The position numbers and the translations under genes were made by a program. Shown here one piece after another: positions 15,825 to 47,100 of a stretch of DNA of 64,000 nucleotides; the first letter of the stretch is position 1, and each line of letters opens with the position of its first letter. The notes under the pieces are model-generated. The model was not told where the DNA came from, searched no databases, and worked only from the letters and a program-made list of their open reading frames with translations. Source of the stretch: Psammoneis japonica (taxonomy: Eukaryota); the NCBI GenBank assembly GCA_008632985.1, contig QPGO01000037.1, positions 62,001 through 126,000 of the forward strand, given 5' to 3'.

Positions 15825-15920
15825 TGTGCAGCACGCATTGTCAAGCAGAAGAAATTGTGTGCATGAATGTTCCCAATCACAGGTTGTCATGCATGTCAAT
15901 CATGCAACAATCATGGATGT
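15825..15920 (+). repeat. Start of the Gypsy 3' LTR
   Basis: Begins TG just after purine-rich AGGGAGG (PPT-like, 15816-15822); matches 12670-12768. Confidence 0.8.
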
Positions 15921-16799: not shown

Positions 16800-19700
16800 T
16801 GTCACACGGAGTCCCACCTAGGGCTGGAACGCGTCTGTTTTGCGATCGCACTCAACCCAAAGTTGAGGAGCAACACCGTCAGTTGTCCAGTTCGTCGGAT
16901 GACAATGGGTCCCTGGTGCAGGTTGCTTCATTGTCGCCGGCGAAGCCGTCAGTTTTCCAGTCATGTCAAGTGGGTCCCCGGTGCAGCTGATGAAAAAGAG
17001 AGAGTTGCCAATCCACCACGATTGTCAGGAGTCAGAATGCTCCTGTGCTTGTGCCTCAACCTCCTGGTCCTGAGAAACATGACAACGTTTGGAGGGAGGG
17101 AGGTCTTACATCGTCGTCCTGATTGTTTGTCGGATCGAGTTCCCGAATTCTGGGTTGACTGCACACCCATCTGTGCAGCGCCGCTCGTTCATCCTGGAGT
17201 TGCACACCAACCCCAAGCTTGCGAGACAGACGTTCTCAGGCTGCCACGACATTTGCCAGCCAAGAGCGTTTGAAAGAGGTTGACTTCAAGAGCAGCGAGA
17301 CAACGTGACCGCAGAAATGACAAGCGAATTCCCCTGGAAGACCTTCTCGGCCCCGCTGAAAATGATGGCAAATCCATGAGTCTAGCTTGTCTCTGGCTTG
17401 CTTGCTGATTTGAGGGTGGGCGGCGGCGTTCCTGTGCTCCCACAGCCGATGCGTTATCCTGACAAGTTGGTGGACCCATCTTCTGACCCATTTGGATCCC
17501 GATTTTCTAGAGCCTTGGAGCCGGAAATGTTCCTGTTGCAGCAGAGCCCACTCCTTTGCCACACAGCCCTCCAGAAGTCTGTCCCAGCCAATGACATGTT
17601 GTGACTCAACCACCTGATGAAGGACCGGGCTTGCGCAAGGGTCGATGCAGACATTGACATTTTGCTGGCTGCGCCAGGCAGTGAGGTGTTCCTGAATGGT
17701 GGTCGCTAAACCAAATGCCGCGTCGTTGCGGTCCACCCAGCGGGTGTGTTTGCGCAAGAGCGACCTCCACTTGTCCGTGGCCTCTGGGCAAGTGGTGATG
17801 TGCGTGGCATCTTCATTATCGCCGTCTCACCGGGGGCATCGCAAATGATCCTGAACCTTCCAGCGTTTCAGCCATTTGCCTGCTCCGCACATTCCCACTG
17901 CGTGTTTGGCCATCCACCGTCGTTTGCCGACACCGAGACTCCTGGCGACAGTCTGAATGACATCCCAATCAATCCTGCGAAAGCCCTTGTCCGTGAAGCA
18001 TCTTTTTTGTTCGATCCAGCATTTCGCCAGCCGTGTGCCGTGAACGTGGTGATGCAGTCGATCAGAAAGCTTTGTCGAGATCTTGTGTCCTCCAACGAAG
18101 ACACCCCACATTTCGTCTTCGATGTCAAACTGTCGTGGCTGCCTTTCCTGGGGATCTGGTCTGGTCTCGTGTTGCCATCAAGCTTTAGCCAGGTTGTCCA
18201 TCTCAATGTTCAGTCTTGCCCATCTGTCGAGTCTTCTGCATCGTTGAGTGTCTTGATGTCCTTTGACCCACCGGAATTTCCACCGCAGCGGGCTCTTGGC
18301 GATTTTAGCCTTGACAGCGCTTAAAATGTCGAAGTCATTGGACTGAGCTGTGACGGGAAGAGTGGGGTCCGACGATTTTTGCAGGGCTTGTTTGCCATCA
18401 CAGGCAATTTCAATTGCTCCTTGATGAACGTCATGATGCAGACAAATGTCTTCAACTGTGCAAACAATGCTGCAGAGACCCGCTGTCTCTGCTCGGCAGG
18501 AATTCACATCACCAGGGTGACCTGGCACAACATTGGCACCCGTCACTTGGTGGGTGTCTCGTTTGCCTTGGACAGTGAATGCCGATGTTGCAAGATCGTC
18601 TTTAGCTGACCCGTCACTGACAGCAATGGCTGCTCCTGATTTGATGGCGTTGGCAACACACAATCCATCGTCGTCGACCGAGACTTTGTCGTTCGCCCAT
18701 TGTCTGGCTGGAGGTCGTTGGCGGAGGCGTTGGAGAAGATTGATTGGGGCTGGGGCGTCTTGACTGAGTCTCTTGCCGGTGGACCCCGAGCGACACATTC
18801 CCCATCTGTCCTCACCTTTGTGGCAAACACGGGTGCGTTGACTGTCGTTGGGCAGTGCAGCCGGTCCAGCCGGGATAAATCTGTGATGATGGTTTCTCAT
18901 TTGCCTGCGACTCGACAACCTGAACGATGTCCATTGGTTGTTCTGACCTCTTTGATGTGGTTGCTGTTCAGATGGAGAGTGGAGCCACTGCCAGCGGGAA
19001 TCATTGTCTCTAGCATCAGGAAGCCAGGCGCCCAAGGGATGGTGCAGTCGCCTTGAACAGACGTTGGCAGCCTGTGCAAAGCAGTGCCTTAGAGCCTTGT
19101 GCCACATCGTCCAATCGGCAGCCTTCGGGCGTTGCTGCGGGGGCCAATTGCACTGGGACCGAAAGAAGACATCCTTCTTTCCATTCCACATGTCACACAG
19201 AATGTCACATCCATTGCCAGTTGAGATGTCAGCAAGTGTCACGACATTCAGGAAGACATGGCAACGATTGAGGGCCTGCAGCTCAGCTCCGACAAAGCCA
19301 TCATCTGCAAATCTTTCCATGAGAAAGGCGTCATTCTTGCGTGAGAGTCTCAGCGACGGTGTGTCTTCTTTGATGCTGATGTCGTGGCTTGAAAAGAATT
19401 TCCAAAGATGTTTGACCCATGATTGGGTGGCTGGGCATCCGAACAATTGGTGGGAACTCGCAAGGAAGGAGCTGCCAATTCCGACTTCCAGCTTGTGTTT
19501 CTCCACAAGTGCTTGGAGAAGTTGACCCGTGATCGTGTCAGCTTTGCCGTGTTTGACAAATGCCTTGACATGTTTCCCACACATGGCAGAAGCGATCGAT
19601 TCAAATCCGAGGCCCTGCAGTCGGACAGGACCGTGCACAACTGCGCAGGGAAAGGACTCACACAAACCCAATCTTGGAAGGCCTTGCTTGAGCAGCGGTG

Positions 19701-19901
19701 CTTCGATGCATTTGCATTCTTTCGATGACAGGGCAAGGGCGAGAAGAGGATGGTCAAGGGCCTCATGGACTCGTTGAGTCAGAGCCAGCCACGCATCAGC
19801 CTTGGAAAGATGACCTGGTCAAGCCCGATCCGCCCAACCTTCAGCATGCTTCCGGAGTTCTTCCACCGCCTTCCTGCAGTTTCCGTCAGGGGCTGGCCAC
19901 A
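16800..19901 (-). mobile_element. 3' part of an Ambal-like non-LTR retrotransposon (post-RT region, RNase H, C-terminal domain, 3' UTR)
   Basis: WPAPDGN right after the junction; RNase H AVSDGS / NSCRAETAG / ACDGKQAL / WVKGHQD / LNIEMDNLAKA; C-terminal IGWDRLLEG..LWEHRN; 3' end approximate. Confidence 0.88.
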
Positions 19902-20457
19902 GCATCAGAGGCCGCAACACAGTGTTGTTCACTTTCCTTTGGAAAATTTGGGACATTTGTTTTGACAATTGTGTGCAAAAATTAGTGATGGTTCATTTGT
20001 TTTTTGACAGTCAATTTACACTCATTGTCGCCATTTTATGTTGGCAATTGTCGCCGTTTTATTTTGCTTTTAAGTTGCCAAAGAATTTCAATGAGCCCTT
20101 TGTTGTTGAACAACGCTTTTTGTTTTGATTAATTTTTCACACATTTGTGGAATCGTCAACTTTGACAGTGCTTTTCAATGGCTTCACCGCAGCCTTGCGT
20201 CACCACAGACAATGGCATTTCTCCCTCGCCCCAGTCGGCCATGCAATTGCCTGGAGGAACACCATCTCATTGTTTCCACCTGCACGCTCCAGTTGTCCAG
20301 TCAACAGGCCCCCACCTGCATTTTGGCACCTTTTCTACATGCGCAGTTCTCTGCCCATTTCACAACAGCACACCCTCTCCCCAAAATGCTTTTGACGAGA
20401 GGGTGTGCTGTTGTGAATCCTGCACATTCTACGTGAATCGGCAACTGACTGTTGGCC

Positions 20458-23400
20458 ATGGCTTCTAACGACTTTACCCCATCTGACGACGAGGTCGACC
20501 CTGACCCTTCTTTCCAAATTACCGAGGACTTAAATTTTGATGAAATGGAACATTTCACCAACGGTTTCGGATTCGAATTGTTCCAACCCAAGCTCAAAAG
20601 CACAATTGCAACGCGTGCCTCGAAAAAGAAGTTTTTGGAGTCGACGAATTGGACCCCCTCTCCAGAATTCCTCGCTCTTCCCTTCCTTTGTCACAAGCCG
20701 AAGTTACGCCATGTTCCTCGTGTTGTCGAAGTCATCCGCACCAACAATGTTGTAAGGAAAACCCTTGGCTATCCCAACATTTGGTCCCACATCATGACTC
20801 GTGGTTGGTCCACCAAGAAATCCCGCCGTGCGAAAGGCGAACATGTCCTGCGATGTAAAAATCTCGAGGAGGCTCTGCATTTCTCCAAAGTGTCCGGAGA
20901 GACAGAAAAAGAACAGCACAACCGTGTGCTTCTTCACCGCAACATCCAGGCGATGGTAGAATTTGTTTGTGCGATCATTGCCGGAGACGACCCAAACGAT
21001 CCTTTATCCGGCAAGCCTTGTTTCCGATTTTTACGGTGCAAAAGTCTCCAAAGTTTGATCAACGATCAAGCCCAAGACCTCCACAGTGCCCATTTTGTCA
21101 CTGACATCGTCGTGCGTTACGTTCAGCACAAGCCCAAGGACATGGACTGTTGGCTCTTGAAGATTTTCCGTCACATCAAAACCCAAAAGGAATGGCGCCT
21201 CTTTGTTGACAGCTTTCTGAGTTACATGCGACACTGACGATCCTGGTGCCCAGGCGGATGAGATCAAGGGGTTCCTTGACGACTCAACCGGTGACACAAA
21301 GAACATGGTGACAATGCAAGGCGATTCCCTTGCACGCCGTGAGGCTTGTGAAGAAAAAATCAATTCCATGTTGAATCACGAATTTGGGAAGCGTTGTCCC
21401 AAGGAGCAAATTGGCATCTGACCTGGGTGCAGCAAGCAGCTCACAATGCTCCATTGCAGAATGCGTGATCAGAGGGCCGACCACTTGGAAGACGACAACA
21501 AACGAATCTACAACTCTAAAACCAAACGCAAAATTAGGAGGACCCGCAAGGATGGCACCTGTTTGTACGATTGTGAGAACCCCCCCCCACCTCCCGCCTT
21601 CTACCTTTCCGCCTGCATCTGTCGTCTCAATGTCTCTTCTCACACCCCATGATTGTTCACGACCCACCAGAGCCTTCCTTGACCGTTCCCAACAAGAAGG
21701 CCAAGCCTGCATCTCGCAATGAACAAGCCCCTCCATCGCTTTCTGGCAATGTTCTGTTGTCCGGGGAGGCACACCGGACTCTCACCACTGACCTTCCGTC
21801 ACTCTCAGAAATTGTGGAAAACCTAAAACCTGCTTCTACCTCCAAAGGTCCTTTGTCCAAACCTCACTCCTCTCCTCCTTCTGTTTCAGCCAATCCTCCC
21901 GCGGTTGCGTCTCCTCCCAGTGACCCTGACGACATGTCGTGGCTGGACCTGTCCACACTCCGTGATCGCTTTGACCCATCCAAGTGTCGACCCGTCACCA
22001 CCGAGGAAGTTTCTTCTCATTTGTCACACCTGCACATCATTGACAAAGCCACCGACACTGATCGGGTGCTTCATCATTCTGCCGCCGACTTTTACCTGGC
22101 GGACAACTTGCGGGAAAACTGGCACACGTTCTCAAACAATGCGCCATCATGTGATTCCGCCACCGCATCTCGTGTTCGAACCGAGTGCCCTCCCAACCTC
22201 GATCACTTCTCCGAGGAACTCTCCGTCGCCCGTCAGGCTAACTCTCTGTACAAGGGGCACTTCGGGTGCCTTCGTGCATGCATTCCCACCCTTCTTCCAT
22301 TTATTTTGTTGAAGGGAGAGTCCGATTTGACACGTGACGGACCGGTTGCAGTTCAAAATGGCGAAGCATGCAGGACAAAGTTCGGTTGTGCTGGGAGAGC
22401 GCATCACCCCAAGACGCCTGGTTCTGCCAAACTGGCCAAACCAAAGGCTGCTTACGGACTTGATGTCTTTGAGTCCGATGATGACTTTGACGCCAATGAG
22501 ACCTCCAAAATCAAGGCGATGGCAGCTGACATCCTTGACTCGATTCAGCTTTGCGAAAATGAGGTAGAGCTGAAAAAACTGAGCAATCCACCGCCATTTA
22601 ACTTTTCACTTCGGTGCGAGGAATGCTCGCAAAAGTTGGGCAACGAAATGGGCTGTCTCTTCTTCAAACGTGAGGACGTTGCCATGCAGGGATTGTGCAT
22701 TTCCCGGGGTCAAGTCTGTGATGGTCACTGTGACAATAAAAACTGCACCTGGCGTCGACACAGGAAGACAGCTGCCGGTTGCTTCTTTGTTGTGGATGCC
22801 TTTGGCAACATCTGGTCCTTCAAGGTTGTCACCAACAGCAGAAGGACCATTGGTGAATGCTGCGACGACCAGTGCGACATGAAGCCTGTGCTCACTCGCA
22901 TGCACCACAATCGAGCTCAGCTTGATTTTGCACTTAAAGACTTGGACTTGCAGCACGATGGTCCCACCCACCCCAATGTGTCGCTTTCCAGCATTGCATT
23001 CAAGCATCTTTCCCTTGACGACAACAGGCCGTGGGACAATGTTCTTGTTGGTGGAGGTGGCGACTCTTCACATGTCGAGGTGCACATGGATCGACTCAAG
23101 TTCCCAACTTTCCCAGTCAGGGACTTCCACTTGTCTGCCCCAGTCACAGTGATCTGCCGTTTCAAGAACATTGTGCACCGATCGGGTCCTGACCCAAAAC
23201 GAGTCATTCGTTTGGCGATCCATGCTGGTCATCCCACCGGATGTCGCCGATTTTGCTGCGTGGGGGACAAGCATCTTCCTGACCTTTGTTGCGAAGGTGC
23301 TGACCCGTTTGTCAACTTTGCTGATTGCTTGCAGAACACATTTGGGGTGCCATGCGGTGACCCACAGGTGGGTGGGATCAGCCCCACCAATTTGACGTAC

Positions 23401-24477
23401 GAGAAATTTTGCGATGCATTTCTAGACCCTTGTTGCGTCGGAACCGCGAATGACCTAATTGATGCAATGGTGGAAGAAATCTGTGCTGCACTTCTCTGGA
23501 TGAACAACAACGTTGACACCAACGAGTTCTGTCCCAACTTAATGGAACAATGGTGCAAGGCAGCGTGTGATGCTTGGGCAGACCGGGGAGCAGATTTCAG
23601 TGAGATTCGTCTCATGTTGGTGCTGCAATGTCTGGTGCTGGCAGGTGTCACAGTGAAAGACCATCCAAGACTCAACAACATCATCTGTCCTGTCTTCAAT
23701 TCGGGAGCTGCCGCACAACTGGGGCATGTTCAACCGGAAGAAAGGCCGCTCATGCACCAAAGGATGTCATCCGAAACAGGAACCGAAGAGCACGGTTGGA
23801 ACGGAACTGAGCACAAACTTTGTGAGAATTCAGACAATCGCTGCACCTGTGTTTTTGATTGTGTTTTCCAAGGACCCTGTTCAGGACAAGACCTGTTTGC
23901 CTTCTCTCCCTCTGGGCAGCATCTCTGCAAGCCACATGGGCCAACCGAGTGTGAAATTTTGGAGTGTGTTGACGACGACCCCAACCTTTTCCAATCACAA
24001 GACAATGCTGAATCGTGCACATTTGTGTGTGAATCAGCCATGCAATCAGACGGTGCCAGTGTTTTCTCTGCTGTTGATGGACTGCCCGCGGACAATGAAC
24101 TTAGCTCATTGTCATCGGAGGAGTCTAGACTCGCCGCAAACAATGAACTTGGCTCATTGTCTTCGGAGGATTGTCGATTTGACGTGGAGAAAGAACCAAG
24201 TTCATTGGATTCGGAGGAGTCTCGACTCGCCGCAGACAATGAACTCAGCTCATTGTCTTTGGAGGAGTCTGTGTTGTCGGAGGACTGCTCGTGTCCTGAT
24301 TCTGACTGCCGCGTTCCAATTGTCACGGTAGATTCTGTTGTCCTTCAGTTGCAGGATCAAGAATCCGATGAAGATGATGCAAGTGACGCAACCGCGTGCG
24401 ATCGACCCGAGCCACCGGTCCTTTTACAAGCACAAGATTTTGACATGGACAAACATGTGAATGCCATTTTTGAGTGA
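20458..24477 (+). pseudogene. Large transposon cargo gene (frameshifted; main 942 aa ORF 21649-24477), possible DNA base-modification enzyme
   Basis: Adjacent ORFs 20452-21237, 21446-21652 and 21649-24477 linkable by frameshifts and a TGA; HCDNKN at 22726-22743; SGAAAQLG..EHKLCE ending 23826; acidic repeat tail; Tyr nearly absent. Confidence 0.55.
24090..24270 (+). repeat. In-frame tandem repeat encoding DNELSSLSSEESRLAA-like units (x4)
   Basis: Repeated AATGAACT..GCTCATTGTC..CGGAGGAGTCT.GACTCGCCGCA. Confidence 0.85.
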
Positions 24478-25424
24478 GTCCATCAACAGCCGAAGAACTG
24501 CTGCAATTGTTTGGTGTCATGTTTTTCACAAATCTTAATCCGCAACATGACTCCTCCTGTGCTTTTGTTTCACATTGTCATGTCATCCCCAGACAAGACG
24601 GAGGTGCAAATGTCCTGTGGCTTTGCATGACGAGGCCCGTCATGGCCGGAAACCTGACATTAGATGAGACATGTTCGGACCGTGGCATGGAGGCCATCCG
24701 ATCCACTCAGCAAAGAAGAGATGAGGCAAGGTGTCAAGTCGTTCAGGATCTCTACACGAACTCAAATGTTCGTGCATGCACTGTGTCCCTGCAGGATGGC
24801 AGCCCCGCTTGTCACTTGAATTGCAACACATCCACCAAGAATTTTGCCCAAAGGGTCAAGACGCGGTTTGGAACAGTGATTGATTTTAAGAAAAGTGGCT
24901 TTGTTCAGATCTGCATGGACTGCTGCTGGATGCAAAAAGGGGAGTGGCTGCAGTCGACACTCGGAAATTGCTTCTTTGGCGAAAACCCAAGGGATGTGAT
25001 GGAAACGTTGTTTCATCCAAAGCTCCAGAGGTGCCGCGTCATAATCCCGTGCACCATTTGGTCACTGACCCAAACCGCGCGCAATTTGGACAACATTTTG
25101 GAATGCGCACTGGTGCAGGCCATGACACAGGACATGGCATGTGAAACAGTGACGCTCTGCCAGGCTTCCCAGGAGATTGTGGAGGAGCACCGTGTGGATT
25201 GGCTGGGAAAATCATCTGACCAGGAAGCATTGCATTTGGGAGTCACGGAACAGGAAATTTGGGAAACGCCACCACATGAAGAAGCCAACTCAGTCCCAGA
25301 GTTCCTGCGAGAGTGTGGAAATTACAACCCGAAGGAACCGTTCCCGTTCCTGTCCTTCGAGAGGAGAATTCCCGATTTCAGGGATGAGTTAAGGAAATGG
25401 CCCAGGAGTTGTTTGCTGTGCTAG
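24474..25424 (+). pseudogene. Unknown transposon cargo ORF (316 aa), Tyr-depleted
   Basis: Long open frame abutting the 942 aa ORF; no recognised family. Confidence 0.4.
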
Positions 25425-25538
25425 TTCCCAGTCGGATTTGTGAGCAGATTGTCAAAGCAGGTGAGTGAACGTTGTCACTGTTGTCCTTGTCGTCCCAATC
25501 AAGTTTTCTGCTGCTGTTGTCGGATGCTCACATGCTTT

Positions 25539-28500: not shown

Positions 28501-28941
28501 ATGAATTTCCTCATGATGGGATCGCGACCCAAGAGCGGAAATGTCATCATCAAACGGTGGTGATCATGGTTCATCGCTTCTGTCGTTTTTGTTGTCAGTG
28601 GACCCAAGCCTGATGTTCGCTGCGGACGCACCTCGTCTGGACCGCCTCAGCCGTGGCTGTGACACGTCATCTGATGAGGAGGAAATGTCGAGATCAACCG
28701 ACCCACGTCTGCGAGAGAATTTGTTGCCAACGTTGGAAGATTTAGCCGCAACCCTTGCTGACAACTCTGGCATTGGGCAGTTTGTGACTGCATCGCGACG
28801 TGACAAGTTGGACATCTCTTGAGCAAACGAAAAACACAGTGGGTCATGATGGAAATGGGTGAGTGTCCGTTTGAAGGATCGTTTGCAACGGGGACATGCC
28901 ACCACACCACCCCCACCCTGCCAACCACCATTTCCTTCCAT
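25539..28941 (-). pseudogene. Plavaka-type transposase with N-terminal zinc finger, frameshifted and hypermutated
   Basis: CPRCKRSF..H..C; LTIYVDKT; EPVTVT; WRVLGHIPDL; DMMHLFENG; WKLQKLHELLHL; NFDAVLGE; CRAHPDC..GPAHDW across ORFs 28564-28941, 27520-28497, 26546-27550 and 25539-26618. Confidence 0.78.
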
Positions 28942-29304
28942 TTGTCATTGCAGCAGGTTTGTGGGCCACCCAAACACATGTGTGTTCGAATGGCAGCACC
29001 GGTTCAGTTCGTGAAAAGTGAAACAGTTTGGGCAGCAAGGAAGGAAAACACGACACGAATTGGCGCGAAAACATGGGTGCATTGTGTTCTTCCCATCAAT
29101 GAAAACATCAACAGGTGAGAATGAATCGAATGCGTTGCGATGATTGACAACTTTGAGCATGAACAACTGGTTGCAAATGTTGTTTTTCTGCGGAAAGGAA
29201 AAAATGAGTTGTGACGTGACAAGCCGTGATGCGTTGCAGCGAGAAGTCTGGGAGGGGTGCACCCACACCTGCTACAGCACCAGACACAAACGTTGCAATC
29301 AACA

Positions 29305-30432: not shown

Positions 30433-30870
30433 AGAAAACGATTTGGCACCAAAAAGGATGGATGTGCTCAGGCCCCAACAGCAAACCGGAATGACGTTAA
30501 AGCAGGTGAGGGGTTTGTTCATTGTGGTAAAAACAACTTTCACAGGTGCACGTTTCACAATGATGTTTTGAACAAAATGCTTTTGCAAGCAATTTACACT
30601 GTGGAAGTGGATTTCGAAATTGCAGCAAAAGAGAGGTTTGAACTGGAATTTGCAATGATTCAAAATTTTCACAAGATCACAAGGAGTGGCAAAATGGACA
30701 AATTGTGTGCACATTAAAAGATTTGGTCAATTCTCAATTATGTTGCATTTGAGAAAAAGGAATCATTGATGGCAACTGTGAGATTTTTGGCATTAAAGAG
30801 AGGTTTGAAAATTTTCCAACGGCGAAAACAACTGGGACACAAGGCATGGAGCCACCCACAATTGGCGACA

Positions 30871-32096: not shown

Positions 32097-32562
32097 AAAG
32101 GCAGCGGAGGCTTTTGTCAGTGTGATGATGGAAAGAGGACAAGCAATGTAGCAGGTTTCAATGTTGACAGTCACAAGGTTTTAATGAAGTGTCAAAGGGA
32201 TCATTGTTTTGTGATCTAACCTTTCGTTTGACAACCAGTGCATGCAATGGAACCAGTGCATGCAACAGAAGGTTCTCTTGACCAATGCAACGCAATGATT
32301 GGCATCAAATTGTTGTTGACCAAAACGTTGTGAACATTGCTTTCAAAAGGTAAAAAGTGACGGAATTCTGACAGTCAAGGGAGGGGTCCCACAGGCAAAG
32401 GAGGGGTCCCATGGTGAAAAATGTAACACTGTGATGTGCAATAAAAAATCACGTTCTACACAACTCACTCAATGTGAAACTGTTGCATTTGTGCCCCACA
32501 ACAGCACCAAAAATTACCCACAAGAAGGGTGGTCAGGATCACCACATTTCGCGCTCTGATGC

Positions 32563-35500: not shown

Positions 35501-35580
35501 GACTTGTTGCTTGTGCTCTCTTGTTTGACATCGAGTTTTCTTTTTCTATTTCCATTGCGGCAGCCGCCTCTCTTTGTCAA
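32563..35580 (-). pseudogene. LINE ORF2 N-half: APE endonuclease and reverse transcriptase
   Basis: APE ITFQNINGL, NET, GRWSW, IVAAHRPC, SGDVN, PIDGIW, GSNH; RT LRPVLCFEVDAN, EQCGSRKG, DLRSCYD, GLGQGDGNAPQIW, FAFVDDSD. Confidence 0.88.
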
Positions 35581-38500
35581 ATGACCACATGGCCACCCAC
35601 CGTGATCCTTCTCTTCATGCGCTGCTCGGACTCACTGGCTTGGTCCCGTGCCAAGCCGGCTTGAACGATCTGAGTGTCGCCCTGGAAGGGATCCGACTCC
35701 CCTCCCTGCATTGCTGCAGTGGCTTCACTGGAGACGCTTTGCGAGGTCTCCATGTTATCGTCATGTCCGTTGCTCTGTTCACTGAGAACAGATCCTGTGT
35801 CGACAGATTGGGCGATCTTCTCCTTTCCTTTGAGGAGGGCAGATTTGACCAGCCCAACAATGTCTGCTAGAGTCATGTTTTTTGTGTCGACGTTGTCAGG
35901 GAGATGGGCTGCCAGATCCTGAATCTCGCCAGTGATGTTGGCCATTTTCTGTTTCGTGGTCTCCGTGGTTCCCGAGGTCTCATTAGATTGGTGTGATCCA
36001 GAAGATTTCTCATCTGTTGGTGGTTGCTTGGTCGGATTGACATGAGCATTTTTTCCTTTCCTGGCTTCTCGAGCCGAGGCTGGTGTGTCTTCGTCAAGGC
36101 CGCCTCATCCAAGCATTGCTGGGTCGACAGGTTCTGGAGCAGGAGGAGTGTTTTCAATTGGTGAGTTGTCTTGCATCACCTCAACTTGGACGTCTTCCAG
36201 ATTCTCAAAGTCATGGTCATCATTGTCTGGCTCCTCCACCAAAGCTTGGGTGCGTGGGTGAGTGGTTGCATGCTTTTCTTCGTCCCATCCAGCTCCTTCC
36301 ATGTCCTGCACATGGGAGGCAGCAAAGAACCTTTCAACACCGCGTCTGTGTCGATGCCGCAGGTGCGGAAGCAGGGAGTGAGCCATGGGAAGGGCCTCGG
36401 ACTCCACCTGTGGATGACATGTCACTGCAGCGGTTCCTCCTTTGTGCTGAGGAAGCACTCCTGCCTCCATGAACTGAGTGGATTTTGGTTTGTTTGGTCT
36501 TTTGATCATTGCGATCATCTGCCAAAGAGTGAGTTTCGTAGCTGGATCAGGTGCGTGGAGAGCTTGAACATTGTGGAGAGGAGCAATTTTTGCGTGTTTC
36601 AGGTGGGCTTGCTGCCGGATGACTGCCGTGTCCACAAGATCAGTCTCGGTTGGGCTGATGCAAAAGGAGCATTCGGGAACAAGCTTGGCGATGGTTCCGA
36701 GCGGTTTGTTGGGGTTCGATTTGGAGAACATTGCTTGGAGAGGACCTCCAGCGTTGTCTGCGTCTCGTTCGTCCATGATGATGTGCAGAGCTTTGGGTTG
36801 TGGGTGTGCAGCCATTGCGTCTGATGGTTTAGAGACTTTCCAAGCACGAAGCTCAACTGGCACCTTAAGACGAGAGCCAATTTCCTTTTCGAGCTGAGTC
36901 GGGTCGAGATCGGCGTGAGCCCACATGAGGAAAAAGCCTCCTTTGGTTCTTTCCGCCTTTTGAAGGACCTTGGGTTTGAGGAAGACTTTGAATGTGTCGT
37001 TGAGTGCGTTTTTAAGGATCTCCTGATTCTCATTGGGGTGTTGGTCCATTCCGAGTCGGAGATCGATCCAATTGTCTTTCTCCGGATTGAGACGAACACA
37101 TTGGAGATGCTGGCGCATCTGTCCGAATGGGAGCTTGGAGAACTGCTTCCGAAAGGTTCCGCCCTTGAGAGCAATGGCCTTGTCGCCGCAGTCTCCCGAC
37201 CACGTCGCCACTGCGACATTGTTGCCGGTGAGATTGCACGCTCTGTCCATGACCTCACCAAAAAATTTTCCAATTGAGACTTCTGGATTTTCATCCTTTG
37301 GGAGATTGGATTGTGCAGGGAGTTTGAGAGTGTGGCGATGCCAACATTTTCGAACAGTTTTGTTTGATTTCGAATTGATGGGGTCGAAGAAGGCCGATGC
37401 TTTGATGACTTCATTGGGTTCTTCCACCGGTGCCGTCTCCATTGACCGTGATTCATTGTGGAGGTCATTGTTTTCTGGTCCTTTCTTGACTCGTTTGTTG
37501 GGTTTCTGAGTTGTTTTGGTTTTCCCTTTGTTGTCGGGAGTGATTTGCTTGGTCGGTTGTCCTGAGCCGGCCTCATTCGCAGAAGTGGAGATGGCCTTGG
37601 CCGTTTTCGTGGCTGCCGCATCAGGGGCTCAAAGGGTGTTTTTTTTGTTCTCATTGGTCGTCTGAGTTTGTTTCTGGTTGGGTTTGGTGCCTTCCGAAGT
37701 GACCTTGGATTGTGCCGCCTTGAGGCTTGACAACAGTGTGGTCGATTTCTGTTTGTTTTCAGCTGGTTTTTTCCTGGTCGAGAGCGTTGTTCCTGTGAGT
37801 TGACGAGAAGTGTTTGAGGGGATCGTGGTTTTTGGATCGGTTGTTTTCAGCATGATTTCTTCATCGGAGCTGGAGGTCTGGTTGTCAGACAGTCCTGTGG
37901 TTTTGAATGGCTTGGGAACCGGCGGTGCAACACCAAGAACCACCACGTTGTCATCAGAGTCCTGGGATGGATTGGAGTGACAAAGGAACTCTCCGTCCTG
38001 TGGGGTTGTGCCACTGCTGACCGAGCTAGAGTCAGAGGACGAGGAGGAGGACGAGGAGGAGGAGGAGGAATTTGTTCCTTCGTTCGAAAAGGAGGAAACA
38101 CTCTCGCTGTCCTTGATCTTGGCCTGGAGTGTGGCGTGCCTGTGTGCTTCCTTTTTTTCAATGCTTGGTGACACGCGCCTTTTGTTGCTCTGATTGGAGA
38201 GATCATCTTGAAGGTCTTCGTCAACAGGAGTGTTCTTAATGAAATTGTTGACAAAATCCTCTTCAGAGTCGAGCGTCGAGTCGACTAAAGAGTCTTCGTC
38301 GCCGCCGCTTTGGAGAGGTTCATGCCTGTTTTTGTTGTGTTGATTGGTCGAACAAGGTGAGTCAGTGGGAGCTGAGATCTCTTTGTTGGAATCGTTCATC
38401 GATGCTTCCGGTTTCTCATTTTTTGCAGTGTTCTTGGGGGTCTTGCAGTTGCTGTTGTCTTCTTCGAAATCCATCTGTTTCTGACCGATTTCAGCCGTTG

Positions 38501-38666
38501 CGCCAGGAGAACCGTCAATCTCAAGAAATTTTTTGATCCCTTGCTGTTTCGGATGCATCCTTTTTTGCTTGCGCTTGTCGGGAGAACTCACATCGGTTTG
38601 AGAGGTTACTTTCTTGCTGGGTGAGGAGGCACCCTTGCGTTTGGTGCCGTTTTGCTTGTTGGCCAT
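35577..38666 (-). pseudogene. LINE ORF1 (long, low-complexity N-terminus), frameshifted
   Basis: Consecutive ORFs 37629-38690, 36105-37442 and 35577-35945; stop overlaps the start of the ORF2 frame. Confidence 0.65.
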
Positions 38667-38749
38667 GGTTGATTTTCGTTGCTGGTTCACGTGGGTGCTG
38701 GCACTGAGTTTGTGTGGACTTTCCGGGTCACTTTAGATGCTGATGCGCG

Positions 38750-41700
38750 CTGCCAACATGAGCAGAGCAAGCAATGGGTGCTCAGCATCCAACAAGGAGG
38801 TTAGAACATCACAAATCAAGCAAAAAAAAACATCAATGAGTCTGGCTGCCAATGTGCATGCCAAAACAGGAATCCAAGACTTGGCATTGGCTCCTTGTCA
38901 TTTGTGGGACTCCTTGTTCCCTCCCCAGCCATCGGAAAACCAGCACTGTGCAAAAGATCCAAAAGCTTGCTTCAACCACAGTGTTGCCCACCAACAATGT
39001 GTGGTCCTTGTGGAAAATCCACAGAGGGCCATGGACATCTTGGAATGGCCACTGCCAAAAACGAAAAGCAGTCCTGTTGTTTTCACAATTCACCAGGGTC
39101 ACATGCACTCATTTGTGAAAGCCCTGATTGTCAATCTGTGGCTTCATGTCTCCACAGTGCAGCAAGTCCTGTTTGCTGTTGCCAGACAGCAATTTGCAAA
39201 GTTTTGGTGTGAGAACAGAATGGTGCTTTTTGCTTTGGGCAATTTAAAGTGTTCTTGTTTTGACAGCTTCTGCTGCTGATTGCATTGTTGTCATTTAGAA
39301 TTCCTCCCACGAGTGGGTTGAAATCTTGATGGCACATGTCAACATTTTGTCTTCCCAGCTTTCTTCCTGTTTTTCTTCTGAAATGGGCTCCTGCCTTGTG
39401 CTTGGTTTTCCATGATTCATGCATCATTTTCTGCATGGTCAGCACTGGCAAAACAGTGGGGCAAGATTTGGCAAAAGATTCAAATTCTTTCTGGAGATCA
39501 CTTTGTTTGCTGCTGTCCCTGAAGTGCTTTTGGTTTTGTCAAACCACCTGTTGGAAGTGCAGAATGAACAAATGCCATCAATCCTGCCCACCTCTGACCC
39601 CCATGCACTGGTCAAGGCATTTGTGGTGGCAAGAGCTGCACCCTTTTGAGTGATGAGGATGCAAAAGTGGTGTCTTGCAACAATCATTTCCCCTTTTCCT
39701 TTGAAGCCTTGTCCAAGCAAGTGAACAAGTGATGCTTTCAAAGCAAAGGTTGGTTCATTGTTCCCTCACAGAACTTTGCAGTGACCCAACAATGGATGCA
39801 CAGTCTTGGCACAGCAATTTGGTGCTGACAGTCCCTTTGCAGCATCATTTGCAATCACTCCAGTTTTACAACAGACAACCCATGCACCTCTGGATGATGC
39901 CACCTGATGGCAATGCATCCAAAAATGGCTCTGTCCACATCTTTTTGTGGCTTCTCTTTCCCTCACCTGATGATCGCTCCAAAAGGGCCAGGGAAAGCTC
40001 ACAATTTTTCTGTTGTGACAGAAGAGTGCAAGTGCAAGTTGTTTGGCTTCATTCCACAATGCAGTGCAACAGATTGCCAAAAAGGCATGTTGGCTGCATC
40101 AGCCAAATCAACACCAATTGCTGTTCACTCCAGCAGAACAACAATGGAGATGTGGTGCCCCGCCAAAATGAACTCTGCACCCTCATCACAAACTGCAAAG
40201 AGGACAGCTCTGGCTGTTGGCTTGCACTCTTGAGCTGCTTTCAAGACTCTGCCACAATGACCTGATCCATCTGTCAAGGCTTTTGCTCTCTAAATTTGAT
40301 GCACTGGCTGACAAATGAGACAAAGAAGTCACAGATTTCTGGGTTGTGGACTGCCTTGCAGCCAAAAGAAGCAGTCTGCACCTTCAGAACCACCATGATG
40401 CACTGGTTTGCCAAATCAAACTCCACATCACCATGTGGAGATGGGGAAAGCTCTTGTCAACAATGCACTGTGACAGATCTGAGTTCTTGAGAGCTTGCCC
40501 AGCTTTGGACACACCCACAGATCCAAGTCACCACATTTGTTGTGAACTCTTCCTGATGCTGTGTCTGTGACTTGGCCTCATTTTTAAACTGCTGTGGCCA
40601 CTGCACAACAGAAATGGCACTCTTGATGAGAAAAGGCATCTCTTGAACAAAAGAGCAATGTAGAAAGAGAAAATGCATGCAAGCCAAACAGGTGCAAGAA
40701 ATGTGCAAAGACTCAACAAACGCACAGCATGAGTGGCAACACATGTGGATGGTTGATGGTGGTGATGCAACAGAAGCAACATCATCAGTGCAAGCCTTCA
40801 ACAAGAATTTTTGCCACAACCCAAGCATGCAAAGCTGAACATTCTCAAGCTTGTCTCACATCTCATGATGAAATGCACCCCAGATTCTGTTGGATTGCCC
40901 AAATTTTTGCCTCAGAGACAACCACATTTTTGAAATGTGCAAAACACCATTGTCTGCACAATTTTGTGTGTCACAATGTTTTAAGATGTGAGCCAGAAAA
41001 CACTCCCAAAACCTGTTCTGCATGGCAACCATGCCTGTCAGGGAGCATCAACCATGACATCAGGCAGCCCCAACCCTCCATGTGCATGTGCCTCTGCTGC
41101 AGTGCATTGGCCCAGCACGGTGGATGGTCACAGCCAGCATGTGTGCAGGGCCCCTGTGTGTGAGTGCCACCAAGGGCAACAGATGGAGGGGCCATTGGCG
41201 GTGCAGATGGCCATCACATTTGATGGCTCATGCCATGTTTGGGCCTGTGGCAAGGTGCGCAGTGTGCAGACCATGGAGACTCTTTTTTCTCCATTTTGCT
41301 GCCAAAACACTGTGTTGCACAAACTTGCTCGTTGTTTGTGACATGTTTTTTCCAGTGTGACTTTTCATGTGCAATTCATGACAAATTGTCTTTGCACAAA
41401 GCTGAGTGCATTGTTTTTCAACATTCCATGCTGGCAACCCTGATTTTTCATGAGTTGAGCATGTCTGAGCACACACTTGAGCTTGAATGAGTGGTTGAAC
41501 ACATTTGAGCACAACAAACCAAACACTGTTGTAAAGCAGGATGTCAGTTGCTGGCAGATCTGGCAGTCAGCAGAGTGCAGCAGCCTCATGGCAGCCAAGC
41601 ATGAAAACCACCAAGTCATCAGCGCCAGAAGATTTGTTCAAACTGCTGCGCAAAGATGAAACAGGCTGTTTTGCACTGCTCAGCAAGGGTCAAACAATGG

Positions 41701-44700
41701 CTCTCTGCTGTTCTCCATGTCTTTGGTGTGGTGAAAGAAAGGCAGTTGGCAATTCAAATGAGCACAGTTGAGCATGTTGAGCACATGGCGGCACACTCAA
41801 GCACATTTGAGAACAGTTGGAGATGATTTGAGCACAGTTGGGCATCAGCAAACCGGCAATGACATCAATCATCAGCAGAAGTGAGAACAAGAAACAAACA
41901 AACAAACATTTTCATTTTAACAAAGGTTTGTAATTTTGATGCCCCCCACGCATCTTTGTGAGTGAGTGCCAGCAAAAAACTGAGTTGAGCCCTTGTTTTT
42001 GCCATGTGATGAGTGGCCATTTTTGCCTCACACCACTTGCACACCAGCCCAAAACTGGCCATTTCTTCCCATTTTCTGGCTTTTCAGCATCCAAATGACT
42101 TCTTTGATGACAGTTGGTTGTGAAATGGGCTTGAGATTCACTCTCCATCCTTGTGAGCCCATGTGTCGACTGTTGCACCACATGTGAATCTCATCAGAAA
42201 GATGCCAAAATTGCAAAGTTCAAGTTTGCAAGAGCTGTGCCAAACGACAAATGCATGAGAGAACATGCAGTCTCTCTCCATGAACAAGTCAAGGGGAGTG
42301 CAAATGAGTGGTCCAAAGAATTTGTCATGCAAAATGCTCAAGTTTCCATCATCCGGGAGAGGGTTGAAGTTGGCTGGGGAACTTTGGCAATTTGCGCAGA
42401 AAACATGTCAAGTTCCATGCACGCAGAATCTGGCCCATTTTTGCAGCCATGCCACCCCAATCTAGCTTCTAAAGTTGCGCCTCATTTGTGCAATGGCTCA
42501 ATTTGGTGCCCCGCACATTTCTGCATGTCAAGTGCCAGAAGAAATTTTCAGCACATCTCCAAAACCATCAACACAACAAGCAGCGCCATTCGTTGACCAT
42601 GCCAACGGGGTTCATGGCATGGCATCTTCTCAGAAGAAGGACAGCACATTCACTGCAGCACATCATGAGGCATCTGTGAGTGTCACAGCAGATGTGCTGA
42701 CATGCTTGTTGAGACCACACAGCTGCTTCATTTTGAAGCAATCTTGCTGGTGCCATTTTTTTGCATCCTTGTCTTTTCATTCACAAACAGGGTGTCCAAT
42801 GGCCAAGTGGTTGTTCAACATGTTTGCAGCAGGGCCAGCACCCACCAGAATCATGTCAGATTTACACGAATGCCCTGCAGCAAGTGTCACAGCAGATGCA
42901 TGATTGACACACTTTTAGATGCTGTGCAACTGCTCCATCGAGGAGCAATCTCAAAGGTGTCTTTGTTGCCTCATTTGCTGTGCAGGGTGTCAAACGGGTG
43001 TTGAGTTGTCAATGTGTTCACAGTTGCACCTGCCAGTTTCCCACCCCCCATCAACATTAAACCCCTGAAGGGACGGTGCTCCCAGTCTTTCATCTCTTCG
43101 ATTTTCTTCTTCTTGTGGAAACTTGCCACTGTCTCAGACTCCGGAGCCTTTTTGCCATCCTTGAAGGAAAGTTGTGCGACTTCTTGATGGATCAGTTGTT
43201 CTCAAAACATGATTGTCATCAAAGAGGAAGTTCCAGAGTTGGGGCCCACCTGTGCAAGTCAACAGAGTTGGGCCAATTTAGACTCGAAATGACATGGATT
43301 GCAATTTCTGTTGCGCTGACATCATTGTTTCTGAGCAATCCATTGACTGCGAAGTTGTTGCTTCTCACTGCATTGACTTCAAAACCAGTTGAAATTTCAG
43401 CAGGTGTGCAATGTTCACAGCTCCTGAACATTGGAGCCGCAAGCTTTCCAAAGATCTCATCCAGTTGCTCACTTGCGCCCAAGTGTGCATCAATGTCATT
43501 GGCAATTGGCTGCAGTTGCTGACTTCTCCTTGCAGGAACAAGCCATGACAAAACAAGTGCCATGCTGGTGACAGCATCAACTTGCAGCTGGAACATTCGC
43601 ATCAAATTAAAAAGCTTCAAAATTAAGAAGCAGCTGCATTTTTGTGCAAGGGATGATGGCATGTGATGTGCACATCTTTGCAAGACAATTTCTTGATGTC
43701 AGGTCCAAGTCTTGCAAAGAACAGTTAAATCTCATTTTTGCATTTAAAACACAGACAACCATGTTCAATGGCAATGGGCAGCTGGAGAAAACTGAAACAA
43801 CATCTGAGCCCAAACACACATGGACAGAAGTGGCAGCAATTGAAGATTGTCATGGCAGCAAAAACAGTTTGATTGCTTGGTTTTTTCATCATTTTTTCGA
43901 TCAACTCAACACATGGGTTGGAAAAGGACTCAGTTTGGTTTTTCACTGTGCCGGCACATGTAAGATGAATGTGACAATGTCTGTCCTGGCACACAACTGC
44001 AGCATTTTCCTTTTTGAGTGGTCATTGGTGGTCAACAAAATGCATGGCAGCAGTGAATCTGCACAGATTTGGGTGTGCCAGGCCATGTAGAAAGTGAACG
44101 GGTTGAAGCACACATGGCCGACGGCCCATGGCCATGTTGCTGACACATGCTGCAGTTTCTCCAACCTCTGGCATGACAGGAGAAAAGTTGTTTTTTTGTG
44201 GCCATGGACACGCAAGAACACAAAATTGAATTTTGTGTCTGGAATGGATGACACCTTGAACCTGGTCAATGTCATTGTGCCCTGATGTGAATCCCCAGGC
44301 AGCTTGTCTTGGTTCAGTGGCAGCATGGAACAGACTGGCTTGTCCATCCTCCTGGCACTGGGGTGGGGTGTTTGGTTGGAGCTGATCTGGGATGAGGAAA
44401 TTCATGAGCCTCTGAGGCAGAGGGTGAGTTGCACACAACTTGCAACAAATTGGTTTTGTTCAAAGCTGCACAAAGCTTTCAACATTCCATGCCATGAACC
44501 CCAATCATTCAAAAGTCTTGATGCCCCAGACTCCAAGCCAAGCAACAAGAGGAGGCTGCTGCCTGGTCAAGTTGTGGGGGCCATCACTGAAGAAGACCAG
44601 CAAGGGACAGATGGGGGGGCAAGGATGGAGGGCAGATGGACACAACAAGATCCCAGACATGCATGACTGACCCACACATTCTTCCCTTGCCAGTCAGCAT

Positions 44701-47100
44701 CAGAGGGGTTGCAACCATGGCAAACCACAGCAGCCATTTCTCATTGCGAAATTCCCCACCACGTGCCCACCCCAGCTGCTGCTTTTGCACAGTGCCAGGT
44801 GTCCCACATCTGGTCTGGGCTGTGCAGCTGCTGCAAACTTTCAAACTCACACACCTGGGGCAGCTCCCACTGACTGGTTGCTGCTTCTGCATCACAACTG
44901 CTGCTCTGCCCATTGCACATGCATCATTGAGGCACTGATCCCCTGAGGCAGGAGTGACTGGGAATCTCCAATGTCACCCCCCATGAAACCCAATGTGTGC
45001 CCAATGCTCTTTCTCCAAACTTGACCAGCTCAACAGTGTTTCCTGAATGTGCATTTCAGCTGTCCCAAATTGCCTCCTTGGTCAGTTCAAATTTGTTCAG
45101 GAGGGAATCTTCTGTTGGAAAATGGTCATGACATGTCGACATGCTGCGCAAGTTTCTCATGGAAGATGTGTCAGCATTGTTTGTGCAGAGTGCAGAAATG
45201 GGCTTGAAAAAGAGTTTGGTTGACACTTCACAAACATCAATTTGACTGACCAAATTAATTTAGTTGGTCTGCAAACTTGGCGGACCAAAACATTTTGGAC
45301 CAACCAAAGTGGCAATTTGGTCCAACCAAAGTGCACATTTGGGAAACATGGATCCCAAGAAATGGCCTGTGCTGTTCAAGGTGACAAGGGACACACTTCA
45401 AAGCAGTGGCCAACCAACACAGGAGTGGTCAACAGCTCCCACTCATTCATGAGCATGGCAGAGGTTTCTAGCTGCTTTTGAGTCTTGGAAAGACTGACCA
45501 GCACAACTGAGTTGGTCACATGTGTTGCCGCATCTGACAGTGCAAAATGTGGTGCACGGAAGCTGTCACACAGACAGACTGCCACTGCGATTCTCCTTGA
45601 CACCCAACTCTGAGACCCTGTCCAAACTGGACCATGCCTGTGTGCACACCTGGTGTCATGGAGCCAAGAGCAAGCCTCTTCAAACAAATTGGTGGTTGCT
45701 GGCCCTGTGCATGACACAATTTTGGGCCATGCCAACTTCAGCAAGGAACTTTGTTCTGGCCAGAACAGCATTTCCTTGAAAACATCATGCCCCAAACACC
45801 ACACCCCCAAGTTGAGACACAAAACAACCCAGAAGCAACTTTTTTGATGCAACAAAAGTGAACATGGCTGCATCTTGTCCAAGGACAACCCACAACCTTG
45901 TCACACATTGTGCACTTGCTGTGTTTGGGGTGCATTGCACGCTGTTCTTGTCTCATCACAATGCAGCATTTTTCCTTGACATTCTCTCAAACAACAAATG
46001 GCAGATGCTTGTGCAGTGAAGTTGTTCACACACAAGCCATGCATGAGTTTAATGTTTGCTGTGGTGATCAATTTTTGTCATTTGCTTGGCTCATTGTCAC
46101 CTTGTGTCTGCATTCTTGTCATCACAGTGGCATCATTGTTGTCATGTTTTTTTGTGTTTCATGTCACCCCAACTTCATTGATGCAGCCAGCTCAGCACCC
46201 TTGTTAAATGACAACACACTTGTGTCATGTGGATGAAGCACAGGTGTGTGCAAAAGCAAGATGCAGTTTGGAAAGCACTGCATGGGCACAAAAGTGTGAC
46301 ACCCACAAAAAGCTTCATGCTGACATCAGGCATGTGCACCAGTGTGATCCAGTTTGGACAGGGTCCAAGAGCAGAGAGTGGCAGCAGCACATTCTGGGTG
46401 GCATGACATGTCTGAATCAAGACCCTGGTGTCCAAACTAAATTGGGCCATGCCTGTGCATGCACCTGATGTCATGAAGCCTTCACGCAGATGTCACAGGG
46501 TCACACCCACCTGCAGCACAAGCAGCAAGCATGCTGATTTTGTGGGGGAGAACCGTTGAACAATTGAGTGGATGGATGTGTTTCAACAATCGCGCCTCCA
46601 CCTCAAACTGCATCATCCAAACAAATCGCCACATTGGCGGTGCTTGTGTGTGCAAGGAATTTGGTTTTGCCATTTGCTTTCTCCAAAAACTCATGCCAAG
46701 TCATTTTACATGGCCTTGGTGCAGATTCCACACAAGTGGAATTTGTGCCAAGTCTGCCCTGTTTGGCTCAGATTGCGTTTTTGGAGAAAGCGCGAGTGGT
46801 GGCAGCAAGAACCAAATTCCTTGCATGTGAAACGCAGGTTGGGCACTGATGGTTTGTTCAGATGACATGGTTTGAGGCAGAGATGTGATCATTGAAACAC
46901 ATCCATCCACTCAATTGTTCAATGATTCTCCCCCGCAAAATCAGCCTGCTCACTGCTTGTGCATTGCCCTCCAAATGGCTGCATCATGCTTTCATGCATG
47001 CCCACACTTCACCCATCATGCACAAACACATTCCTGCCCTGATTTTGTTTTTTTTTGTCACTCATGCAGGTTGATCATTTAACAAGGGTTTAAACCAACT
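38750..47100. other. Highly eroded repeat/TE-derived tract lacking both TpA and CpG
   Basis: TG/CA-saturated; no credible ORFs; 39650-39862 is homologous to 11940-12160; internal direct and inverted repeats at 45600-46965. Confidence 0.7.
46515..46965. repeat. Long imperfect inverted repeat (foldback/MITE-like), arms ~185 bp
   Basis: GCTGATTTTGTGGGGGAGAA..TTGAACAATTGAGTGGATGGATGTGTTTCAA near 46535-46585 is mirrored at 46892-46945; mirror ORFs both begin MDGCVS. Confidence 0.85.

Follow-up and report, generated by a model that had tools for sequence, protein, structure and literature searches.

Introduction

We analysed a 64,000-bp window of the Psammoneis japonica genome (contig QPGO01000037.1, positions 62,001 to 126,000), in which transposable elements, among them a retroelement and a DNA transposon nested in it, have lost nearly all of their TA dinucleotides (TpA). 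The closest described system is found in Bigelowiella natans (Mettrop et al., bioRxiv 10.64898/2026.01.13.699255, 2026). According to that preprint, 231 of the 302 de novo mutations in mutation-accumulation lines fell in two integrated viral regions; of these, all but one were A to G or T to C changes, and all 230 lay on TpA. The B. natans genome is reported there to hold 124 TpA-poor clusters rich in CpA and TpG, and its TpA-poor coding sequences are enriched in reverse-transcriptase, endonuclease-reverse-transcriptase and DDE domains. The candidate put forward is adenine deamination by an ADAT2-like enzyme. The main text of the preprint gives the 5′ T as the only context, with no wider one, and makes no mention of CpG.

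Searching the literature for TpA-directed hypermutation, we found this preprint and no case outside B. natans. A Rhizoctonia paper, considered as a further case, concerns ordinary transition bias and indices of repeat-induced point mutation (RIP). Such hypermutation of invading DNA has been described once so far, in 2026, and the phenomenon is only just known. As far as the main text of the preprint goes, our window matches it in direction, dinucleotide and mobile or foreign targets: transitions at TpA give TpG or CpA, and they are confined to mobile DNA while the host genes are spared. The erosion is far deeper here, with rho(TA) at 0.03-0.09 in our tracts against 0.45 in their viral region. 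Beyond what that main text covers, the window offers a hierarchy of flanking bases, a synergy at RTAY (R, purine; Y, pyrimidine), evidence that a DNA transposon is hit, accompanying CpG decay, and a miniature inverted-repeat transposable element (MITE) left untouched.

Three other systems leave comparable records. Fungal RIP is likewise a DNA-level transition hypermutation of repeats with a dinucleotide preference that leaves neighbouring genes intact. RIP changes CpA to TpA, raising TpA and creating stop codons, and it has a length threshold, which the escape of a short element in our window recalls. The polarity is opposite here, since TpA is destroyed, no stops are created, and CpA and TpG are raised (rho 1.5-2.1) where RIP would lower them. 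The APOBEC3 enzymes also provide a deaminase defence with a context-specific transition signature in integrated elements; they differ in leaving a strand-biased G to A signature in retroelements only, and in acting on C (5′-TC or CC) in single-stranded cDNA (PMC10661471, Table 1). Finally, the decay of 5-methylcytosine at CpG is echoed in the older tracts of the window, which lost 80-95% of CG to TG and CA. It differs from the TA erosion in being a second, slower process with a weak context dependence (0.055-0.40) beside that of TA.

We conclude, with a probability of roughly three in four, that the transposable elements of this window underwent context-selective hypermutation of TpA at the level of integrated DNA, by a chemistry that we infer.

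Results

Loss of TA depends on the flanking bases

Applying a two-state hidden Markov model to TA density across the window, we delimited five TA-poor tracts (12520-16417, 16820-47234, 48606-50567, 55138-56264 and 58419-64000). They sum to 42,984 of the 64,000 bp, about two thirds of the window, and 21,016 bp remain outside. The tracts combine rho(TA) of 0.03-0.09 with rho(TG) and rho(CA) of 1.5-2.1. The segments between them have rho(TA) of 0.52-0.87, and those that carry host genes (0.52-0.70) are normal. The tracts at 12.5-16.4, 38.9-47.2 and 58.4-64 kb are nearly without CG too (rho(CG) 0.05-0.18) and hold no recognisable open reading frames; we refer to them as old. In the younger 16.8-38.9 kb tract, CG is only mildly reduced (about 0.7) while rho(TA) is already low; TA erosion is therefore much faster than CpG decay. 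The old and short tracts, none of them assigned to a strand, are as follows.

12520 to 16417: old eroded tract, TA- and CG-poor; 8 TAs; rho(TA) 0.03, rho(CG) 0.14, rho(TG) 2.07, rho(CA) 1.73; no recognisable open reading frame (ORF)
38901 to 47234: old eroded tract, TA- and CG-poor; 1-10 CG per 500 bp
48606 to 50567: short TA-poor tract; 8 TAs, rho(TA) 0.06
55138 to 56264: short TA-poor tract; 5 TAs, rho(TA) 0.07
58419 to 64000: old eroded tract, TA- and CG-poor, reaching the window end; 21 TAs, 15 of them YTAR

All tracts together keep 210 TAs (109 YTAR, 54 YTAY, 38 RTAR and 9 RTAY), whereas the 861 TAs outside divide into 139 YTAR, 246 YTAY, 206 RTAR and 270 RTAY. Between 16820 and 46700 alone, 165 TAs are split 83, 45, 30 and 7 in the same order. 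The original prediction, made by reading the letters of this stretch, held that surviving TAs are mostly YTAR. The counts bear it out, 109 of 210 standing against 139 of 861 outside (odds ratio 5.6, Fisher p=5e-25), and all ten sites that it had named are YTAR within 2 nt (CTAG four times, TTAA three times, CTAA twice and TTAG once).

Normalised counts of the ten strand-symmetric NTAN classes, inside versus outside, speak to the same prediction, and the depletion is far from uniform (chi-square p=2e-33). The ratio of inside to outside density is highest for TTAA (0.61), CTAA/TTAG (0.31) and CTAG (0.27). It is intermediate for GTAA/TTAC (0.17), CTAC/GTAG (0.11), ATAA/TTAT (0.075) and GTAC (0.066), and lowest for ATAG/CTAT (0.03), ATAC/GTAT (0.003; 1 vs 151) and ATAT (0; 0 vs 60). 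The flank-dependent range thus exceeds 200-fold. A first-order Markov expectation from the tracts' own dinucleotides fails as well, giving 63.1 YTAR where 109 are seen and 42.8 RTAY where 9 are seen (chi-square p=8e-14). As a second baseline, we used the AT-rich, largely non-coding segments 8000-12519 and 16418-16819; their 278 TAs, including 43 YTAR, have a flank distribution that matches the whole outside. The heterogeneity is present in each age class, namely the young tract (137 TAs, p=8e-18) and the old tracts (60 TAs, p=4e-29).

We described the loss by a half-site model with four parameters, in which the loss at a TA is the sum of one term per strand for the base 3′ of TA. The terms are 2.68 for T, 1.49 for C, 0.74 for G and 0.27 for A (deviance 10.2 over 10 classes), with survival per half-site of about 0.07, 0.23, 0.48 and 0.76, respectively. 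An enzyme-like preference for TAY, equivalently RTA, had been predicted, and the strong dependence of TA loss on its flanks agrees with it. The wording of that motif held in part: TAY/RTA is targeted, but the scale is graded (TAT >> TAC > TAG > TAA), with no clean split between purines and pyrimidines. Likewise, the sparing of TAR is incomplete, as RTAR is not rare among the survivors (38 of the 147 surviving TAR sites). Among surviving TAs the base at +2 is A in 0.50 against 0.30 outside, and T in 0.13 against 0.28; the context of the mutator may therefore be wider than the tetramer.

The hierarchy can be set beside the contexts of known adenosine deaminases. For TadA/ADAT2, U33 stands before A34 in the anticodon loop. 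The likeness to TadA/ADAT2 is an A with a 3′ pyrimidine, within the motif 5′-ACG (PMC10661471, Table 1). The differences are that the best context in the window is TAT, that T beats C, that TACG is no more favoured than other TAC contexts, and that the base at -2 also matters.

The retroelement and the nested DNA transposon are eroded alike

The 16.8-38.9 kb tract resolves into the following features. X1 is a public sequencing run whose share of words is 0.51; we used it as contigs, and no RNA run is listed.

16836 to 19899, minus strand: 3′ part of a retroelement without long terminal repeats (non-LTR), the C-terminal ~900 residues of ORF2; TA-depleted, CG mildly reduced
19900 to 32562, no strand assigned: nested multi-copy DNA transposon, 12,663 bp, with 9-nt terminal inverted repeats and an empty-site contig in X1
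21577 to 24477, plus strand: 966-codon open frame in the transposon; Tyr 0.4%, Cys 5.4%; a family without a Pfam model
25557 to 28437, minus strand: Plavaka-like transposase remnant in three shifted frames, mapped by tblastn (P0155, E=5e-52; P0157, E=3.5e-13)
32563 to 38900, minus strand: 5′ part of the retroelement, with the endonuclease and reverse-transcriptase region of ORF2 at 35454 to 32563 (tblastn with P0153 and P0154); TA-depleted

Performing tblastn, we placed P0153 (residues 986-1898), P0154 and P0001 on 19953 to 17107, and BLASTP of this 3′ part against P0001 gave 36% identity (E=6e-103). On the minus strand, the window is collinear with residues 52-1898 of P0153 and 20-1876 of P0154, proteins of ~1,900 residues each. 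P0154 matches Pfam Exo_endo_phos at 36 bits (cut-off 24.5) and RVT_1 at 23 bits, below the cut-off of 29.6. Through this collinearity we recognise the single long ORF with an endonuclease followed by a reverse transcriptase that marks non-LTR retrotransposons. Judged from the alignments, the two halves are one non-LTR retroelement, similar to long interspersed nuclear elements and split by the insertion. Low-complexity ORFs lie upstream of ORF2 at 36105-38732. Over the 5′ part, at 33-39 kb, the plus strand shows a skew of TG over CA of +0.16 to +0.41, which may reflect the strand composition of the retroelement or a strand bias of the mutator; composition can explain it.

The insertion itself is documented by an X1 contig that joins 19899 directly to 32563, skipping the 12,663 bp, and that represents the empty site. 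A possible target-site duplication is limited to 2 ambiguous letters. X1 depth is 1000-4000 over the insert and 100-180 over the retroelement parts, as compared with ~30 for exact single-copy window contigs, so both elements are multi-copy. With E<=0.001 as the limit, the 966-codon ORF has 169 relatives, of which P0003 (53% identity) is the closest; the seven relatives that we looked up all come from metagenome-type contigs. Pfam returned nothing relevant for this ORF and 10 of its relatives, and none of the 43 pattern matches in a metagenome scan with it was a relative. In the protein collections, we found no near-identical paralogue of the ORFs of the multi-copy tract, the best being the 53% and 36% identical ones. 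P0157 matches Pfam Plavaka at 42.3 bits (cut-off 26.3) and P0155 has no Pfam match; by this homology, the nested insert is probably a Plavaka-like DNA transposon, a candidate for the Plavaka/KDZ group of the CACTA superfamily.

The retroelement and the nested DNA transposon are equally TA-poor. The general mechanism therefore cannot lie in RNA or cDNA being edited during retrotransposition; the erosion acts on DNA and not on the RNA or cDNA of the retroelement.

This result bears on RNA-level A-to-I editing of transcripts by an ADAR-like or tRNA-deaminase-derived enzyme, fixed by reverse transcription. To our knowledge, ADARs are known from animals only. Their hyper-editing of double-stranded RNA from repeats resembles our record in the A to G change, in the 5′ U/T preference and in having repeats as substrate; a retroelement does form part of the tract, and ADARs favour U 5′ of the edited A (PMC10661471). 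The ADAR hot spot given by the same source is 5′-UAG, yet TAG is among the spared contexts of the window and TAT and TAC are the targeted ones, so that the 3′ G preference and the restriction to elements with an RNA intermediate, both expected of ADAR, are absent (half-site terms TAT 2.68, TAC 1.49, TAG 0.74, TAA 0.27). Moreover, both strands are affected, the transposon passes through no RNA copy step, and pairs of TG versus CA between copies, described below, suggest erosion after insertion. RNA editing is thus very unlikely as the source of the erosion.

RTAY sites are lost first

We divided the eroded DNA into the less eroded transposon ends (19900-21650 and 30200-32650, 4,202 bp), the core of the young tract, and the old tracts. 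The ends keep 3-4 times more TA than the core, despite having the highest X1 depth. The density ratios relative to the outside are given below.

Less eroded transposon ends: RTAY 0.019; one favourable flank 0.387; YTAR 0.576
Young-tract core: RTAY 0.026; one favourable flank 0.086; YTAR 0.389
Old tracts: RTAY 0; one favourable flank 0.044; YTAR 0.365

In the transposon ends, one RTAY was seen where the additive half-site model gives 14.1 (Poisson P=1e-5), and mixing of more and less eroded stretches would shift the RTAY count in the opposite direction. This deficit beyond the additive model argues that two favourable flanks act together and that RTAY is the preferred target; the self-complementary RTAY appears to be the best one. 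The YTAR ratio barely differs between the young core and the old tracts, so YTAR may be essentially refractory. The loss of CG in the CG-poor tracts depends weakly on the flanks (ratios 0.055-0.40; 159 CG vs 1,155 outside; p=1.6e-4) and shows no purine/pyrimidine structure in them.

The same numbers allow us to weigh an account without any context-selective mutator, in which the YTAR excess would stem from the ancestral make-up of the elements, from selective retention, or from re-creation of TA in YTAR by C to T changes. The near-equal YTAR density in the young core and the old tracts could reflect an equilibrium of loss and re-creation. However, the span from ATAT/ATAC to TTAA lies outside any natural flank bias, the two baselines agree, the Markov expectation fails, and the order with RTAY first is repeated in three parts of differing erosion. 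Selection is implausible in dead elements. We give this account hardly any weight.

TA is converted to TG and CA

Compared with the outside, the CG-poor tracts have per kb 37.2 fewer TA, 46.1 fewer CG and 85.5 more TG+CA, a gain that about balances the combined loss, and the young tract has 34.4 fewer TA, 9.2 fewer CG and 30.7 more TG+CA. The tract ORFs reflect these products. Tyrosine codons were expected to be hit throughout, and they are nearly all lost: Tyr makes up 0.3% of 5,054 tract-ORF residues as against 2.3% of 2,653 host-ORF residues, while Cys is at 3.8% vs 1.9% and His at 4.1% vs 2.6%. The relatives of the 966-codon ORF mostly have 2.5-4.5% Tyr, whereas the ORF itself has the 0.4% given above.

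Aligning the 966-codon ORF, we find 14 columns with Tyr in at least half of 17 homologues; the ORF has Cys in 5, His in 3, Tyr in 2 (both TTAC) and other residues in 4. At the 25 Tyr positions of P0003, it has Cys 10, His 9, Phe 4 and Tyr 2. The retroelement, at 21 Tyr columns, has His 7, Cys 3, Tyr 1 and other residues 10; the transposase, at the 27 Tyr positions of P0155, has Cys 7, His 6, Tyr 1 and other residues 13. Only 2 of 16 conserved Ile columns are retained in the 966-codon ORF. There, a T precedes 5 of 7 Ile-to-Val and 4 of 5 Thr-to-Ala changes, which is what T|AT becoming T|GT and T|AC becoming T|GC would leave behind. With conserved Tyr residues now Cys or His, and with TG and CA gained, the loss of TA is mutational.

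Direct comparisons of DNA agree. In a 200-bp paralogous pair, with one copy outside at ~11.96 kb and the other in a tract at ~39.66 kb, all six RTAR sites are changed in the tract copy, four to RCAR and two to RTGR, and several CG have become TG or CA. In a second pair, TTAA is retained by the tract copy.

Under the genetic code, an A to G or T to C change at TA never makes a stop codon, and it removes TAA and TAG. This explains the stop-free frames in the dead elements, which span 260-966 codons. The stops in the retroelement alignment lie at homologue Arg columns (three) and a Leu column (one). Gene finders would take such long stop-free frames of dead elements as genes, and annotators should be warned.

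Which base of the TA pair changes

The A of TAY had been predicted to be the mutated base. This holds for a majority only, ~55-65% of single-flank events in the young tract and a higher share in the old ones, and not for all. The ratio (YTGY+RCAR)/(RTGR+YCAY) is 1.21 outside (95% confidence interval 1.10-1.34), 1.26 in the young tract (1.16-1.36) and 1.47 in the old tracts (1.35-1.61). It is predicted at ~1.6-1.7 if the A of TAY changes and at ~0.8 under the opposite rule; the shift towards YTGY/RCAR is thus seen only in the old tracts.

Among codons, the excess over the closest homologue after a pyrimidine is +12.7, +18.3 and +11.6 for Cys and +0.7, +13.9 and +8.6 for His in the three elements, summing to +42.6 for Cys versus +23.2 for His; after a purine, the sums are +35.4 and +33.8. 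At Tyr columns of the closest homologue, Cys and His stand at 14:11 after a pyrimidine and at 13:15 after a purine. A rule that confines the change to one strand, be it to the A of TAY or to the A of RTA, was rejected as a full description, since YTAY codons yield both products. The majority for the A of TAY, together with the RTAY synergy, fits an enzyme that counts both the purine at -2 and the pyrimidine at +1 of the attacked strand, the latter somewhat more.

Adenine attack and thymine attack of TpA would leave one and the same sequence record. In the second case, a TET/JBP-type dioxygenase, for example, might convert thymine to 5-hydroxymethyl- or 5-formyl-uracil, whose mispairing with G would give T to C, and the RTA/TAY preference would be the enzyme's reading of the flanks of T. 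An A to G change on one strand is indeed a T to C change on the opposite one, and no context class lacks either product. Two facts count for a thymine target: fungal KDZ/Plavaka transposons are found in association with TET/JBP genes, and in dinoflagellate DNA 5-hydroxymethyluracil is enriched at TpA. Against it, oxidised thymine normally undergoes repair that leaves no strong T to C outcome. Pfam found no TET/JBP domain in any tract ORF or in the 10 relatives of the 966-codon ORF, and the only published proposal for TpA hypermutation, as worded in the B. natans preprint, is adenine deamination. Thymine attack is accordingly unlikely, though it stands well ahead of RNA editing. One further candidate was set aside: the nearest Atlas clusters of P0004 carry a thymidine-hypermodification domain (ADDT) but score 0.76, below the shuffled-protein level, and are a lead rather than evidence.

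Differences between copies and an untouched MITE

Comparing the copies in X1, we find that 747 of 820 places of difference are transitions. Among the 40 of these 820 places that were listed, most are CG versus TG or CA, and five are adjacent TG-versus-CA pairs, four of them in an RxxY context. Such pairs may be expected if copies eroded independently at RTAY, a site that could go either way; a CG ancestor is also possible.

These data also address a technical artefact, namely base-calling errors at modified bases (e.g. modified A at TA taken for G and 5-methylcytosine at CG taken for T). TA and CG, the depleted dinucleotides, are both self-complementary and of the kind that is modified, and both would be read as transitions. 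However, copies differ from one another by real transitions, and the B. natans precedent, as described in its preprint, is based on Illumina data. The X1 contigs repeat TA-poor stretches with 0 differences in 282 and 283 nt, X1 being maybe the assembly's own source. An artefact of this kind is highly improbable.

Next to the retroelement lies a short element that has not been eroded.

16446 to 16835, no strand assigned: MITE-like element, 390 bp, with 30-nt terminal inverted repeats (87% complementary) and a 4-bp duplication, TGTT

The surrounding 402-bp segment has 31 TAs (rho(TA) 0.87) within an otherwise eroded region, and the MITE is not TA-depleted. Depth in X1 peaks in the bin touching the MITE, and the window contains one copy only. 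An intact high-copy MITE means that copy number alone does not attract the mutator. The element may have escaped through its short length, a recent arrival or its chromatin state.

Host genes and other features

Pfam matches in the normal segments identify an HNH_2 protein, a lysine methyltransferase, a chromate transporter, a ubiquitin-conjugating enzyme, an ankyrin protein, a trehalose-phosphate synthase and a Cu/Zn superoxide dismutase. These host genes have long, mostly uninterrupted exons. The trehalose-phosphate synthase gene contains an intron of ~95 nt at 52633-52728, which starts with GTACGT, includes a branch-like CTGAC motif and ends in AG. In the Atlas, a fragment of this synthase matched bacterial GT20 clusters only. 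Direct repeats (units of ~150-380 bp, 71-76% identical) occupy 9918-11089 in the normal AT-rich segment before the first tract. In the tracts, none of the ORFs searched with Pfam (25, then 12 tract and host ORFs) gave a tract match even at E<=1, as is expected after erosion. An Rfam search of the window gave 0 matches.

Discussion

The near-total loss of TA to TG and CA, except at YTAR, points to a mutator of DNA that is sequence-selective and directed at mobile elements. The window itself shows that the loss depends on context, what it yields, that it is restricted to mobile elements, and that a DNA transposon is affected along with a retroelement. In the mechanism that we propose, integrated elements, young and old, would be hypermutated after insertion by A:T to G:C transitions that turn TpA into TpG or CpA. 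A site would be marked as a target by a pyrimidine on the 3′ side of TA, T more so than C, which equals a purine on its 5′ side. RTAY would be destroyed first and sites with one favourable flank roughly ten times more slowly, while YTAR would be nearly refractory. The dead elements keep very long frames with Tyr-to-Cys and Tyr-to-His changes, no stops being created. A second, slower and weakly context-dependent decay of CpG to TpG or CpA proceeds in the same tracts and sets the older ones apart; it is most simply explained by deamination of methylated cytosine.

Several observations weigh against this reading. The baseline of the depletion ratios is host sequence rather than the ancestral elements. 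Self-comparison of the window gave 14 weak matches with two usable pairs, which falls short of a polarised set at the nucleotide level. The gain of TG and CA in the young tract (30.7/kb) is below the combined loss of TA and CG (43.6/kb). Among the 40 of 820 listed differences between copies there is one plain TA versus CA difference, so that ongoing TA mutation is not shown by these data. Furthermore, Tyr codons after a pyrimidine give Cys 6:His 1 in the 966-codon ORF, and instead Cys 1:His 5 in the retroelement (at least two homologues agreeing). With the elements disagreeing in single-flank direction, a simple one-strand rule does not fit.

As to the chemistry, we favour an adenosine deaminase, by analogy with what has been proposed for B. 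natans: a polynucleotide adenosine deaminase, recruited to silenced repeats, would deaminate adenine in DNA to inosine. Judging by the 390-bp MITE that was left untouched, its targeting signal would be a length or chromatin threshold rather than copy number. A fuller statement, which we advance tentatively and would not yet rely on, is that an enzyme reading duplex DNA at RTAY converts either A:T pair of the TpA to G:C in integrated mobile DNA exceeding a few hundred bp in length, and does so outside B. natans. Long host exons, the lack of near-identical paralogues in the protein collections and the erosion of two thirds of the window, where the whole B. natans genome has 124 clusters, speak for a source other than the annotated B. 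natans reference, without proving it.

In this window we see where such a process leads in the long run, on ordinary transposons of both classes. The new information lies in a quantitative flank code, the RTAY preference, action on DNA in place and the escape of a short, high-copy element. An ADAR-like enzyme is disfavoured by the flank code, which a TadA/ADAT-like one fits only in part; comparing the code with the ADAR and TadA motifs makes the enzyme question directly testable. If the fuller statement is true, the window would bear witness to a chemically new kind of genome defence, one that inactivates elements by missense changes only, at every Tyr and most ATA Ile codons, without creating stops. 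It would be the mirror image of RIP, and the flank code (T>C>G>A, with RTAY synergy) would serve as the fingerprint of an enzyme distinct from ADAR, APOBEC and canonical TadA.

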